A DNA stretch of 64,000 bases from a virus (Duplodnaviria > Caudoviricetes). The translations under genes and the position numbers were made by a program. A model generated the notes under the pieces. It was given only the letters and a program-made list of their open reading frames with translations, was not told where the DNA came from and searched no databases. Location: IMG/VR virus record IMGVR_UViG_3300007513_000003; one strand, given 5' to 3'. Every line of letters begins with the position of its first letter. The first letter of the stretch is position 1. This document shows, piece by piece, positions 32,797 to 38,163 of this stretch.

Positions 32797-34467
32797 TTAT
32801 GTTGTTGGTGCTGGTTCTAACTCAGGTGCTTCGCCACCTTCTATAGGTGCTTCACCCTCTATAGGCGCTTCATCACCTTCCGGAAGTTCAGGTTCCTCTG
32901 CCATAGACATATCAGAGTCTAATCCACCTGGTGTAATACCAACATTACGCATATCTGAACCATATACTTGGGATGCTTGATTGTTGCCTGTTTCCTCTTC
33001 CCACTTTTCTGTGTTTTCAATTAGTTCTTGCTCTGTTAGACCTAAGTAACGTGTTAGCAAGAAGCGTTTACTCATATATGGCAATTGTTCTAACTGCGTA
33101 AATGCAGAAATCTTTGTGTTATCCAACTCTGCTTGTCTATATGATGCAAAGTTCTGCGGCTCATTAAACTTAATTTCAAAAATACTATTGTCAATATTAA
33201 CACCACGTGTCTTTAAAAATAGTTTAAATTCTGTATCAACTGTACCAGAAATAATTGTTTGTAAACGTTTGCAGTATTCGTTGAATCTAAATTCTTGAAT
33301 TAATGCTGTGCCTACTCTACCATCATTATAAGCGGCGACACCTTCATCAGGTCCGGTTGGCAAATAACTTGCCGGAATACGCAATGCACGATATAATTTA
33401 TTTGTAAAATATCTTAAATCGTCAATTTGTCCTAGATTTTCACCTCCTGGTAATGTTTCGACTTTACTGCCTCTTCCTTCGCCCGTTTGTGGAAAGAAAT
33501 AATCTTCCATAATAGATAGTGGATTATATGTTGAATCCATCATTTTGGATCCACCACCTGTTGTAGTTGGAATTCTACGTTGGTGAATTTCATTCTTAAC
33601 ACGCTCAACAAAACCCATAGCCATGTGTGATGGCATATTACCTACGTCAATGTAAAATACACGGCGTTCCGGAGCACGTTGTACGCGGTAGATAATAATA
33701 GCATCTTCTAATAATTCTTTTTGTTTATATGTTTTAAAGATATTCTCTAAAATACTATTACCAAATGGCCAGGTGCCATCCATCTCTTCTGTTAAACTAA
33801 TATGAACAATATAATTAGCATCAATAGCAACGGCTTTTTTACCATATGTGTATTTGGAAGCATTTGCCATATTCTCTTGTGTTTGTGATCCTGTTCTACT
33901 CATTAGATTAGGAATAGTTGTACCACCTGTCTCCTTTTCTGTTGTTTGTAGAGTATCAAAATTAATTGCTAAATCACGAACAATATATTGTTCAATTTCT
34001 TTACCGGCACTTTCATCAACAACAATCTTTTCAACTTTGGCACAATCAACAAAGTGCCACTTTTGTGTTTCTGGATCACGAATAAAAAGTTGGTCACCGT
34101 ATTTTAGTGTGTTGCGGAAAAGTTTAAAAATTTTACGATCAAAACTTTGTAGATTATACCAGTGTTTTAATTGTGTATTTAAAATTTCCATTTCTGTTGC
34201 TGTCGCGTCATCATGGTAATGAACTTGGAATGCAATGCCTGATTCTGTATTTTGTTGTGTACAGAATTCTGCTAAAATATCAAGTGCTGAATTTACTTCA
34301 CTGTCTTGGTCCATTGCATCGTATTGAATATAACGCTCAATACGATTAGGATGCCCAGAGTAAACTTCAGGCAATACTGAACTATAATTTTTAAAGCCAA
34401 CGTCAGGAGTTCCATTTCTCATTGGAACTACATTGTTTGGTTGTGTGAAATATTTTTTCCAAGTCAT
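32797..34467 (-). CDS. gp20: Portal vertex protein
   Basis: IIIYRVQRAPERRVFYIDVGNMP, EDYFFPQTGEGRGSKVETLPGG, LYRALRIP. Confidence 0.97.
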   Translation of the reverse strand: MTWKKYFTQPNNVVPMRNGTPDVGFKNYSSVLPEVYSGHPNRIERYIQYDAMDQDSEVNSALDILAEFCTQQNTESGIAFQVHYHDDATATEMEILNTQLKHWYNLQSFDRKIFKLFRNTLKYGDQLFIRDPETQKWHFVDCAKVEKIVVDESAGKEIEQYIVRDLAINFDTLQTTEKETGGTTIPNLMSRTGSQTQENMANASKYTYGKKAVAIDANYIVHISLTEEMDGTWPFGNSILENIFKTYKQKELLEDAIIIYRVQRAPERRVFYIDVGNMPSHMAMGFVERVKNEIHQRRIPTTTGGGSKMMDSTYNPLSIMEDYFFPQTGEGRGSKVETLPGGENLGQIDDLRYFTNKLYRALRIPASYLPTGPDEGVAAYNDGRVGTALIQEFRFNEYCKRLQTIISGTVDTEFKLFLKTRGVNIDNSIFEIKFNEPQNFASYRQAELDNTKISAFTQLEQLPYMSKRFLLTRYLGLTEQELIENTEKWEEETGNNQASQVYGSDMRNVGITPGGLDSDMSMAEEPELPEGDEAPIEGEAPIEGGEAPELEPAPTT

Positions 34468-34543: not shown

Positions 34544-36856
34544 CTACCCGTATGTCGTCCCATCTTGCCCTGCTTCATTTGCTAATCCGTGCGGAGATCT
34601 TGCGTTCTTGTTTCCATTATCAATATTAACATTAACCTGATTATTTTTCTGTGCTTGCAATTGTTTTTCAGTAAGATCAACGAGTTTATCCAATTGTTGA
34701 GTTTGCTTTTTCACTTCTTGTAAGTTTTCATTAGCGGTATCTGACAAGCTTTTAGATGCTTCAGTTGCCCCAGTAGCAGATTCACCTGTTTGTGCTATGC
34801 CTGCCTCGGCCAAGGCTGATATCTTTGTGGAAAGTCCTGCATGGCGCGCATCTGCACTTGATGTTGCTACTTTTGGTTTTGCTACTGGTGTACCAGGTGG
34901 TGGAGTATTTGGTTTTACTACTGCTGTAGGTTTTGCTTCCGAAGTACCACCCAGCACATCCTTCCTTATGTCGACGCGATCTCCAGTCCCGCCAAACATT
35001 TCATGCATTGTGTCATACTGTTCTTGAATTAGATCTATAGATGTTTTCATAAAACCTGTAATTTTGTCACCTAATGTACCTGCCATTCTTGGAATAGTTC
35101 TGTAAGATACAAGTCCTTCGTCTTGTAGTTTTATTATCTCAGCTGAAAGTTCTTCATCAAACCCCGTTTTTTCTTTATAGGTTTTTAATTGTCCCTGGAC
35201 CCAATTGATCAGTCCATCATCAGCGTTAAAGATAGTATCCAAAAACAATTCCCTGGCGCCAACTGCTATCTCGTCTTTCAGAACTCTGATATCAGTTGTT
35301 AGTTGGGTAGCTGCATCACCAATCGTTCCTACGAGTTTCCCGTCGACAATTTCTGCGTCAATACCCATTGCTTGATCATAAAAATGTTCAAATGCTGTCG
35401 AAAAGTTTACTGATTCTGTATCAACTATCCCGGCATGTTTGGCATATGCGTCTTGAATTGCATTAAATTTTGTAGTGGTTGCCTGTGCAGCTTCGAACAA
35501 TGCTAACCCGATCGGTTGGCCAGCCGCGGCTAAAGGAGCAAAAGTATCTCTTGTTTTTTCTATGGCGTCTTCTAATTTGCCTAGACTTGCGTTAAAAATC
35601 TCGCCGGCGCCATCACCAGCAGATAACATATCTGAGGCTAGATCGTTATACATTTGTCCCATCGGAGTAGCCATCATCATTCTAGCCTCTTTACCTTTCG
35701 GAACAACACCTGCAACTCTGGCTTTAAAGATCTCAGCGGCCGCCGGGCCGCCTGTTTCCATTGCCTTCTTGAGCCCGTCTGTCATTGCAGCCTGTTGTTC
35801 TGGGCCCATGTTCATAATAGCCGCCTGGAATTGCGCGTCAGATGCCAATTTTTGTTGTTCTTTCGCTAGCCGATCTTTACTCTTACCAGTGAGTACTTCT
35901 AACTGTGATAATTGGTATATATAATCACCGGTCATATCTGCTTGCTCTTGAGCAGATAACGAACGAGTGCTATCAGCCAGAGAAGCATTATTCAGCATGG
36001 TTGCCGATAACTCTAATGCATCTTCTACATCCATACCCATCAATTCTATTGTGCGTCTAAACGACATTCCGGATGTTGTATGACGTCGGCCAACGTCTGA
36101 AAGTACGCCACCTAAAGTAACTAATCTTTCAGCACCTAGTTGTGCTGTTCCTCCAAACATAGACAATGTTTCAGAATTTCTTTTCATTAAAGCATTAAAT
36201 TCTGTTTGTGTCAAAGTTGTTGTTGTGATGGCCTTCGCATACGTTTCTAGACTTCTACCAAAAGGTATACCTGCTGTGGTTATCTCGTTTAGTCCATCTA
36301 AATATCCGCCGTACACTTCTTCAGCAATTCCGAGCGCCGCGCCGCCGGCGCCGCCCACAACAGAACCTACCATCGCACCGGCGCTGCCGAATCTAGCTCC
36401 CGCGGCACCGCCCAACCCAGCGCCGGCGGCCATAAAAGGAACCTTGGCAAGAATCGACTTAAAGACTCCCGCGATCGCAGACATAATACCACCTTGATCG
36501 TCATCCTTATCTTTGTCATCTCCATCTGAATCTGGCTTAGTTAGTTTTCCATCTTTAACAATTTTATCTATATTGCCCATCGCAATGACCATTGCTCCGG
36601 CGCTTGCGGAAAAGGTCATGCCGGCCTTGGTTATTTCTACAGCGGCACCGCCGAGAGATTTGGTCAATCCGTTTAATGCTTCTCCAAATGCCTCTGCACT
36701 ATCACCAGCATAGGATATTTGTTTTCCAGAAACCCTCGCAACTCGCGAAATGTAATTTAACTCTGTAGACGCACGATCCGCAGAGTCAGAGACACTTCTA
36801 AATAGCGCATCTATAGATCGTTTGGTTTCTCGTAAAATTGCGTCGTCGTCTGCCAT
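34544..36856 (-). CDS. Tape measure protein
   Basis: 770 aa, helical and Ala/Gly-rich with a Gly-rich hydrophobic segment; adjacent to the gp26-like gene. Confidence 0.65.
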   Translation of the reverse strand: MADDDAILRETKRSIDALFRSVSDSADRASTELNYISRVARVSGKQISYAGDSAEAFGEALNGLTKSLGGAAVEITKAGMTFSASAGAMVIAMGNIDKIVKDGKLTKPDSDGDDKDKDDDQGGIMSAIAGVFKSILAKVPFMAAGAGLGGAAGARFGSAGAMVGSVVGGAGGAALGIAEEVYGGYLDGLNEITTAGIPFGRSLETYAKAITTTTLTQTEFNALMKRNSETLSMFGGTAQLGAERLVTLGGVLSDVGRRHTTSGMSFRRTIELMGMDVEDALELSATMLNNASLADSTRSLSAQEQADMTGDYIYQLSQLEVLTGKSKDRLAKEQQKLASDAQFQAAIMNMGPEQQAAMTDGLKKAMETGGPAAAEIFKARVAGVVPKGKEARMMMATPMGQMYNDLASDMLSAGDGAGEIFNASLGKLEDAIEKTRDTFAPLAAAGQPIGLALFEAAQATTTKFNAIQDAYAKHAGIVDTESVNFSTAFEHFYDQAMGIDAEIVDGKLVGTIGDAATQLTTDIRVLKDEIAVGARELFLDTIFNADDGLINWVQGQLKTYKEKTGFDEELSAEIIKLQDEGLVSYRTIPRMAGTLGDKITGFMKTSIDLIQEQYDTMHEMFGGTGDRVDIRKDVLGGTSEAKPTAVVKPNTPPPGTPVAKPKVATSSADARHAGLSTKISALAEAGIAQTGESATGATEASKSLSDTANENLQEVKKQTQQLDKLVDLTEKQLQAQKNNQVNVNIDNGNKNARSPHGLANEAGQDGTTYG

Positions 36857-36907: not shown

Positions 36908-36929
36908 CATCAAATTTTGAGGATTTCAA

Positions 36930-37769
36930 ATGAGTAGTTTATTAGAACAATATTATCGCCAACCTGAGATTTATATCTCATTACCTAACGAAGGTAAATT
37001 TTATCCTGCAGGATCTATAGAAATTTCCGAATCCGGCGAGATTCCTGTTTTTGCTATGACAGCCAAGGATGACATTGTACTTAAAACGCCTGATGCTTTG
37101 ATATCAGGTGAAGCAATTGCACAAGTTATAAAAAGTTGTGTTCCTGCTATTAAAGATCCATGGCAAGTACCTGCTACTGATATTGATTTCATTTTAGTAG
37201 CAATTCGAATTGCGTCTTATGGTAATGACATGGAATTGAATTTTTCATGTCCTAAATGTGAAGAAAAATTTGATTATCAAATAGGTTTAGAATATTATAT
37301 TAATAAACTAGGTGATATATCCTTTGAACCTGAACAAATCTTAATTCCTTATGGCCAAGTTAAAATACATATTAAACCATTAAATTATTTGGATTTGTCG
37401 TTAATTCAAAGACGCACATTCGAAGAACAACGTGCAATTGAGGCAGTGGGTTCAATGGAGGAAAAAACAGAAGAAGAAAAGCAAGAAATGTATAATGAAA
37501 TACTAAATACAATGACCGATATAAACATCAACGCTATTTCTTCAGGTGTTAAAGCAATTGAACTTCCAGATGGCACTATGGTTGATGATCAAGAAGAAAT
37601 TATTAATTTTGTTAATAATTCTAGTGTAAGATTATTCAAAAAAATTACAGGCGCTATTCAAGAAATTAAAGACAAAACAGTATTAGACCCTATTGATGTA
37701 AAATGCCCTGAATGTTCCCATGAGTTTACTAGTCCTATAATTTTTGATTACGCAAATTTTTTCGCCTAA
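36930..37769 (+). CDS. gp26: gp26-like baseplate hub / tail assembly chaperone
   Basis: ISLP..G.FY, MTAKD...L, DIDFILVAIRIASYG, two CPxC motifs, ends DYANFFA. Confidence 0.7.
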   Translation: MSSLLEQYYRQPEIYISLPNEGKFYPAGSIEISESGEIPVFAMTAKDDIVLKTPDALISGEAIAQVIKSCVPAIKDPWQVPATDIDFILVAIRIASYGNDMELNFSCPKCEEKFDYQIGLEYYINKLGDISFEPEQILIPYGQVKIHIKPLNYLDLSLIQRRTFEEQRAIEAVGSMEEKTEEEKQEMYNEILNTMTDININAISSGVKAIELPDGTMVDDQEEIINFVNNSSVRLFKKITGAIQEIKDKTVLDPIDVKCPECSHEFTSPIIFDYANFFA

Positions 37770-37993
37770 GGCTTCTATCATTAAAATACGAAGAAATATT
37801 AGAGTTAATTACTAATTACGAAAATCAGGTAGAAGCCATAAAAAAAGAAATATACAGTTTTGCATGGCATATGCGAGGTGGATTTACTATCAATGAGATG
37901 TTCAACACTTCCGCAAAGGAAAGAAAAGTACTTTCTGACATTATTGAAGAACATATGAAAACAACAAAACAATCAGGTTTACCATATTTCTAA
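37760..37993 (+). CDS. gp51/gpT-like ORF in -1 frame without its own start codon; likely expressed by -1 frameshift
   Basis: FRLRLLSLKYEEI...WHMRGGFTINEMFNTSAKERKVLSDIIEEHM..; slippery A-AAT-TTT-TTC at 37754-37763. Confidence 0.7.
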   Translation, partial: FRLRLLSLKYEEILELITNYENQVEAIKKEIYSFAWHMRGGFTINEMFNTSAKERKVLSDIIEEHMKTTKQSGLPYF

Positions 37994-38109
37994 TGGAACA
38001 AGAGAACGAAAAAAAGCAGAATGAAGGCTTAGGATTACTTGGGGCAATATTCAGTCTATTCATCGGCTACAAAGCAGGCAAGAAAGCTGGTAAATGGCCC
38101 TGCATTTAA
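37993..38109 (+). CDS. 38-aa membrane peptide (unannotated)
   Basis: MEQENEKKQNEGLGLLGAIFSLFIGYKAGKKAGKWPCI; TAATG coupling to the upstream ORF. Confidence 0.55.
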   Translation: MEQENEKKQNEGLGLLGAIFSLFIGYKAGKKAGKWPCI

Positions 38110-38133: not shown

Positions 38134-38150
38134 ACCAGGCGTCGCCTGGT
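38134..38150. terminator. Hairpin between convergent small ORFs
   Basis: ACCAGGC-GTC-GCCTGGT; U-tracts weak. Confidence 0.45.
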
Positions 38151-38163
38151 GTCGGATTAAAAA

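Follow-up and report, generated by a model that had tools for sequence, protein, structure and literature searches.

Does a gene related to gene 26 of phage T4 specify one protein or two? The question is raised by a gp26-like gene on the plus strand at positions 36930 to 37769 of a 64,000-nt stretch of viral DNA (Duplodnaviria; Caudoviricetes), hereafter the window, taken from IMG/VR record IMGVR_UViG_3300007513_000003. The source record, from an uncultured marine giant phage, comprises 201,690 bp in IMG/VR with an estimated completeness of ~57%, and DNA of the window was found in seawater and marine metagenomes from three studies. Frameshifted pairs of tail assembly chaperones are a hallmark of long-tailed phages; to our knowledge, T4-type phages have not been counted among their carriers. 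An initial annotation of the window had proposed that a programmed -1 frameshift fuses the gp26-like open reading frame (ORF) to a gp51-like ORF. The comparative analysis described below indicates that the gene is very probably decoded by programmed -1 frameshifting to give a short and a long protein.

The ORF read in the 0 frame encodes 279 aa (the short form), with two CxxC pairs and the C-terminal sequence ..DYANFFA. A Shine-Dalgarno-like GAGGA (36919 to 36923) is located 6 nt 5' of its ATG. The short form belongs to the Pfam family PF12322 (T4_baseplate; E 1.5e-18, 67.8 bits vs a gathering cut-off of 24.5) and scored 65.3 bits in a genome-wide search for PF12322. It also matched phrog_150, 'baseplate hub' (E 2.1e-19). 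The AlphaFold2 model of the short form had a pLDDT of 86.9. Structural matches in BFVD were to baseplate-hub and gp51-like proteins, with E values down to 1e-17. The locus gave no blastn match in phage records, and neither the short form nor T4 gp51 had a sequence match in the PDB.

The gene ends with GCA AAT TTT TTC GCC TAA, in which both of the overlapping X_XXY_YYZ heptamers described in the initial annotation are present. T_TTT_TTC (37757 to 37763), which has this form in the 0 frame, is the proposed site of a -1 tandem tRNA-Phe slip, and the 0-frame stop TAA (37767 to 37769) is located one codon past it. A_AAT_TTT (37754 to 37760) is a formal heptamer that only about one relative in two shares; slipping there would not alter the product. 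The -1 frame runs without a stop from 37748 to 37990 and closes with TAA at 37991 to 37993. The resulting extension (37763 to 37993, plus strand, base 37763 being read twice) would consist of 76 codons plus the stop and form a helical domain resembling the tail of gp51; counted from A_AAT_TTT it has 77 codons, the length originally given. The predicted long form is made up of codons 36930 to 37763 and 37763 to 37990 (278 + 76 = 354 aa), with the junction ..DYANFF/RLRLL.. from either heptamer. The peptide pattern W.MRGGFT.. was recovered in the -1 translation. The first ATG, GTG, or TTG of this frame, previously placed at about the 38th codon, is the ATG at 37871 (extension codon 37), which has no Shine-Dalgarno-like motif.

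Relatives of the gene were collected by tblastn, which yielded 96 phage records, all jumbo myoviruses with 25-33% identity, and by a scan of IMG/VR, which yielded 45 loci with 32-73% identity. From the 45 IMG/VR loci and the isolates Atu_ph07, PA5oct, SE_PL, RaK2, 121Q, and CBB, 32 distinct loci with 25-73% protein identity were defined. T_TTT_TTC was invariant and in phase at the ..FF motif in 32/32 of them, the six cultured isolates included, and the -1 frame was open for 70-78 codons in every locus. The heptamer and the open -1 frame noticed in the window are thus both kept in homologues, and a pattern in which homologues lack the heptamer and carry a conserved start with a ribosome-binding site for the downstream ORF was not the one observed, the potential starts being scattered.

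The codons at the site were conserved beyond the amino acids that they encode. In the short form, C107/C110 and C259/C262 were kept in at least 29 of the 32 loci, and F277/F278 were invariant. A codon alignment contained 31 conserved degenerate columns, 29 of which varied synonymously; only the two slip-site Phe columns never did (TTT in 32/32 and TTC in 32/32). Comparison columns varied, e.g., Asp (GAT in 21 loci, GAC in 11) and Cys (TGT in 26, TGC in 6). The codon 5' of the heptamer always ended in T and was AAT in 16/30 loci. The first codon of the extension was always CGN and never AGR, whereas another invariant Arg mixed AGR and CGN freely. The 0-frame stop was found 1-11 codons past the heptamer in the relatives (at the second codon in 14/30 loci), and the residues encoded between the two were variable. 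Judged by this codon choice, the slip signal is more than a product of chance.

The extension was conserved from its first codon, with a mean column identity of 59% and indels of whole codons only (alignment A1). Its invariant residues were R1, W35, M37, R38, R54, and T68. Of the 32 loci, 9 had their first potential -1 start within extension codons 1-10, 13 within codons 11-30, and 8 past codon 30; in 2 it preceded the extension, in the overlapping part of the -1 frame. The PA5oct extension contains no start codon. No Shine-Dalgarno-like motif was found at early -1 starts among the 32 loci.

We compared the extension with the hub proteins of T4. T4 gp26 (208 aa) and gp51 (249 aa) both belong to PF12322 (E 9e-64 and 4e-52, respectively), and gp51 runs ~50 residues past the PF12322 domain; by this domain content, gp51 is a gp26 paralogue with an added C-terminal tail. 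PF12322 occurs twice in T4 but only once in each of the complete genomes of Atu_ph07, PA5oct, SE_PL, and RaK2. When the fused-product profile was compared with one built from nine gp51 homologues, a single alignment started at residue 60, crossed the junction, and ended at gp51 residue 247 (E 6e-5, probability 65%). The comparison of the extension alone with the gp51 tail alone gave a score of 16.4, and column shuffles gave 10.0 +/- 2.0, with 0/150 reaching the observed score. The extension of phage S-PM2 matched T4 gp51 residues 212-246 (E 6e-5), and the profile of jumbo-phage extensions matched the profile of T4-like tails (P 5e-4). When the extension was aligned with whole T4 gp51 by hhalign without the context of the N-domain, an unrelated segment was returned (probability 2.9%), and hhalign against T4 gp28 returned nothing. 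These results support, with moderate confidence, the homology of the extension and the T4 gp51 tail, which is strengthened by the bridge through S-PM2. The gp51-like character assigned to the extension in the initial annotation was thus borne out by the profile alignment, the shuffles, and the S-PM2 match.

S-PM2 (L073), HTVC008M (L074), and KVP40 (L075) each have a single PF12322 gene that ends ..FF on an in-phase T_TTT_TTC or T_TTT_TTT, together with a -1 ORF of 57-63 aa that aligns almost without gaps to gp51 tails. This is the same -1 ORF at the same position as in the window, and it is annotated as an independent 'gp51 baseplate hub assembly catalyst' gene of 45-57 aa from an internal ATG (KVP40.0327, S-PM2p208, and HTVC008M gp022). 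The in-phase heptamer is not annotated in GenBank for any of the three. The KVP40 record already notes the likeness to the T4 gp51 C-terminus; the gp51 likeness is therefore old knowledge, and the frameshift reading is absent from the records of KVP40, S-PM2, and HTVC008M. Since these three phages carry the heptamer, the frameshift is probably widespread in the T4 superfamily and not confined to jumbo phages. Standard annotation misses the proposed slip, as had been anticipated: none of the six GenBank records of the jumbo relatives contains a frameshift annotation, and most give nothing or an arbitrary piece of 40-59 aa. We found no report of a gp26-like frameshift in the literature, including papers on the RaK2 group, PA5oct, CBB, phAPEC6, P1, and the T4 tail; the CBB, phAPEC6, and PA5oct papers do not mention a frameshift and hold no usable peptides for the gp26-like gene.

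An extension-only profile was searched against 1.84 billion representative proteins, and 510 proteins were detected at E <= 1e-3, 200 of them at E <= 1e-10. The matches fell into two classes, ORF calls of 40-100 aa with arbitrary starts and proteins of 319-351 aa carrying the extension in frame at the C-terminus. PF12322 was present in 20/20 of the long proteins examined. Their junction reads ..xFRxK(I/L).. and contains no slippery run. On their contigs, the genes come immediately 3' of a short PF12322 gene, of 287 or 294 aa and devoid of the extension, and share the synteny with the portal gene and a gene resembling that of a tape measure protein (TMP). Because the long gene adjoins a short PF12322 gene, some relatives have a separate gene for each form, the two lying in tandem. 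The AlphaFold2 model of an in-frame long homologue (pLDDT 90.8, pTM 0.85) placed the helices of the extension at residues 266-275, 279-308, 313-317, and 321-341.

In a tree of the shared domain, T4 gp26 grouped with gp51 (support 99). The tandem short genes fell within the frameshift clade (support 97), and the in-frame long genes did not. This topology suggests that the T4 26/51 split and the jumbo tandem pair were separate duplications, with an uncertain root at which long branches meet. In one tandem locus (L064:411-1295), the short paralogue ends AAT TTT TTC ACT .. TAA and the -1 frame closes at once; this heptamer may be a remnant slippery site left behind by the duplication. Campylobacter phage CP220 (L077, L078) carries two PF12322 genes ~9 kb apart, one short and one long, and the long gene has an in-frame gp51-like tail (..LYPFEREIFISLI..). 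CP220 looks like a third independent two-gene solution.

Could the -1 ORF instead be a separate small gene ('gp51', 45-57 aa), either initiated independently or reached by termination-reinitiation from the gp26-like gene? It is so annotated in GenBank for KVP40, S-PM2, and HTVC008M; the ATG of KVP40 and S-PM2, 3-4 codons past the heptamer, overlaps or abuts the gp26 stop, and 9/32 of the jumbo-type loci have a canonical start in extension codons 1-10. In the window, however, the first start comes after 36 conserved residues and without a Shine-Dalgarno-like motif, start positions are not conserved among relatives, and PA5oct has no start at all. Conservation begins at the very codon that shares the C of the heptamer, and an independent gene would leave the invariant choice of TTT-TTC unexplained. 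Moreover, the in-frame fusions and T4 gp51 show that this domain belongs on a PF12322 body. We therefore consider separate initiation improbable.

Transcriptional slippage, in which RNA polymerase adds one U at the T6 run and fuses the frames in the mRNA, would yield an identical protein from the homopolymer at the junction. It appears slightly less probable still. Efficient polymerase slippage usually requires ~8-9 or more T, for which six is short, and the run never exceeded 6-8 T across 35 lineages. The conserved feature is a phased X_XXY_YYZ with flanking T and C, as tRNA re-pairing would need, whereas polymerase slippage needs no phased flanks. Because the window was assembled from a metagenome and homopolymers are prone to error, we also weighed an assembly error or a broken gene with a disused 3' part. 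The T6 run was present in 32 distinct assemblies, including those of the six cultured isolates. Contig X6, from a run of what may be the source study, crosses the slip site without differences, and contig X8, from a ~97% identical strain in another study, covers 37748 to 37898 without an indel. Given the number of independent assemblies, and two further runs whose contigs read through the site free of indels, the run is not an assembly error. The conservation of the extension at the protein level speaks against decay, and the in-frame homologues differ at the junction (..xFRxK..) by more than a one-base indel. The assemblies, isolates, and contigs effectively refute artefact and decay.

Several observations weigh against programmed frameshifting and temper our confidence in it. 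The evidence for the predicted long product is comparative and indirect. FF is in addition a conserved motif of the protein itself (T4 gp26 ends ..EFFELL), so that coding explains part of the T-run, though not why its codons never vary. An ATG 3-4 codons into the -1 frame of some relatives, KVP40 and S-PM2 among them, makes separate initiation conceivable there. No convincing stimulator was found in the window: the 60 nt downstream of the heptamer had a minimum free energy of -3.4 kcal/mol (z +0.6) and a best stem of 4-5 bp. The weak candidate hairpin at 37772 to 37793 on the plus strand, pairing CUUC (37772 to 37775) with GAAG (37790 to 37793), is unconvincing as a stimulator. The efficiency may therefore be low or depend on other features, e.g., the nearby stop codon.

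Other clades have stems of 7-11 bp beginning 5-7 nt past the heptamer, which share a 5' arm (R-L/I-L codons) and use two 3' arms or registers. A single RNA stem common to all clades was looked for and not found, and there was no conserved Shine-Dalgarno-like element upstream of the heptamer, nor any such element at that place in the window. The sole metatranscriptome contig spans only 37221 to 37382, short of the slip site. U_UUC is reportedly among the more slippery A-site motifs in Escherichia coli, a finding attributed to Sharma et al. 2014, and the P2 E/E+E' gene is said, from the work of Christie et al. 2002, to slip on TTTTTTG.

Under programmed frameshifting, the majority of ribosomes would terminate at the TAA at 37767 and produce the 279-aa gp26-like protein. 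A fraction would slip by -1 on U_UUU_UUC (37757 to 37763) with one tRNA-Phe on UUU in the P site and another on UUC in the A site. The slipped ribosomes would then read the -1 frame to 37993 and produce a protein of 354 aa, composed of the shared 278 N-terminal residues and a helical domain of 76 aa. The short form would be the counterpart of T4 gp26 and the long form that of gp51. By analogy with lambda G/GT and its tape measure protein, we infer that the pair may chaperone the assembly of a complex of hub and tape measure.

The genes next to the gp26-like gene bear on this proposal. An Ala/Gly-rich protein of 770 aa, the probable TMP, is encoded on the minus strand at 34544 to 36856, divergent from the gp26-like gene, and the T4-type portal protein gp20 (PF07230, E 1.3e-107) is encoded on the same strand at 32797 to 34467. 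The order of portal, a protein of ~720-830 aa, and the gp26-like gene is kept in Atu_ph07, PA5oct, SE_PL, RaK2, 121Q, CBB, and uncultured relatives. Language-model features of the 770-aa protein were nearest to tape-measure clusters (0.94), the annotators of RaK2 recorded tape-measure similarity for its counterpart, and in PA5oct, 121Q, and CBB its homologues form part of the virion. No function was assigned to it by Pfam or PHROG. In BLASTP, neither the 770-aa protein nor KVP40.0326 matched T4 gp29 (PF25671), and KVP40.0326 had no Pfam match. We conclude that the 770-aa protein is probably the tail TMP. The initial annotation had placed the frameshift beside the tape measure gene; the adjacency to a probable tape measure gene holds, with the qualification that this gene is divergent. 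In PA5oct, the TMP-like neighbor is flagged as a virion protein by electrospray ionization tandem mass spectrometry (ESI-MS/MS), and the gp26-like homologue carries no such flag, an indirect hint that the latter may be absent from the virion. An uncontrolled prediction of a complex between the short form and the TMP-like protein (residues 71-770) scored 0.00 and is uninformative either way.

Two further features of these neighbors were observed. The tape measure family of the jumbo clade appears without a name in the Pfam and PHROG libraries. On a contig of a relative in GCA_015689235.1, the portal protein has 1015 aa and contains an intein (PF14890) between two PF07230 halves.

In L005, the nearest relative (73% identity), the extension is followed on the plus strand by a DUF6875/DUF1415-like gene (L005:4064-4603), whose ATG overlaps the stop of the extension (TAATG). 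The same overlap is found in L025. The TAATG overlap hints at translational coupling of this gene to the -1 frame. In the window, the homologue of the DUF6875/DUF1415-like gene (59% identity) is inverted, at 38310 to 38879 on the minus strand, and the old start is left with only an ORF of 38 codons (MEQE..; 37993 to 38109, plus strand). A GC-rich inverted repeat (CCAGGCG..CGCCTGG-like; 38137 to 38157) is located between the remnant ORF and the inverted gene and may be a bidirectional terminator or mark the inversion boundary.

A wider scheme can be proposed tentatively, and we hold it somewhat less likely than its converse. The PF12322 pair would be the T4-superfamily counterpart of G/GT, acting as chaperones of the hub and tape measure. 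The -1 slip on U_UUU_UUY would be common, and probably ancestral, in jumbo Rak2-like phages, schizo-T4 vibriophages, cyanophages, and pelagiphages, and T4 proper, CP220-like phages, and one uncultured jumbo clade would each have swapped the slip for a gene duplication, with the essential gp51 being the GT-like long form. The tail-chaperone frameshift that seems to be 'missing' in T4-type phages would then have been there, unnoticed, all along. If the frameshift itself, apart from this scheme, is real, hundreds of phage genomes mis-annotate the locus, giving a truncated gene together with nothing or with an arbitrary small "gp51" ORF. gp26 and gp51 would form a short/long pair with the fixed-ratio logic of G/GT, from which concrete experiments on hub and tape-measure assembly follow. 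The family would also be a natural case of recoding and gene duplication repeatedly replacing each other for the same two proteins.

T4 itself resembles the window in its proteins and differs in how they are encoded. T4 gp26 and gp51 have been described as hub assembly chaperones, gp51 being absent from the virion (PMC3004832). T4 gp26 ends at the ..FF motif (..CPECG..EFFELL), as does the short form here. Past this point, gp51 has a tail that can be aligned with the -1 extension, although this tail is ~25 residues shorter than the extension. Unlike the window, T4 uses two divergently transcribed genes. Its gene 26 ends GAG TTC TTT GAG, with no slippery site and no open -1 frame, and gene 25 lies directly 3' of it.

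The comparison with lambda is one of organization. The initial annotation had likened the extension to gpT-type chaperone tails; a resemblance to gpT or gpG families is not supported by the searches. Neither the short form nor the extension matched a tail assembly chaperone or Phage_tail_T family in Pfam or PHROG, and 22/22 extension homologues had no Pfam match. For the N-terminal part, a wide structural search gave YqbN 3klu (Z 5.2, 101 residues, rmsd 4.0) and the HK97 chaperone 2ob9 (Z 4.3, 79 residues, rmsd 3.8), both at noise level in a list of 2748 chains at Z >= 2. The long-form model had no Foldseek match in the PDB at E <= 0.001, and a wide VIA-align search with the short-form model gave generic helical hairpins (residues 150-210) and no tail assembly chaperone, 3klu and 2ob9 being absent. 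The protein here is also about twice the size of lambda gpG and has Zn-ribbon-like CxxC pairs, and the TMP-like gene in the window is divergent, not downstream on the same strand. Of the proposal that gp26 and gp51 are the G/GT pair made as a frameshift fusion, the frameshift has strong comparative evidence, and homology to G/GT is not supported by the searches.

What is shared with lambda is the logic of the locus. A conserved -1 frameshift of tail assembly chaperone genes, with gpG/gpGT of lambda, is said to have been described by Xu, Hendrix and Duda 2004. As in lambda G/GT, a -1 slip is predicted near the 3' end of an assembly-protein gene, giving short and C-terminally extended forms with a common N-terminus, and the gene adjoins a (probable) tape measure gene. 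Tail tube, gp26, extension, and a large gene follow one another on one strand in KVP40 and HTVC008M, an order that corresponds to lambda V-G-T-H. The large gene of HTVC008M is annotated 'putative tail tape measure', with one further gene between it and the extension, and that of KVP40 encodes a hypothetical protein of 656 aa. The analogy rests on the pair with a shared N-terminus predicted to arise by a -1 slip, the assembly role of the T4 counterparts, the adjacency to the probable tape measure gene, and the gene order in KVP40 and HTVC008M. The likeness to G/GT thus appears to be one of logic and, in the T4-like relatives, of gene order, an analogy for which the searches support no homology. 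What would be new here is the use of a -1 slip for short and long tail-assembly proteins in a different family and lineage, together with its replacement by gene duplication.

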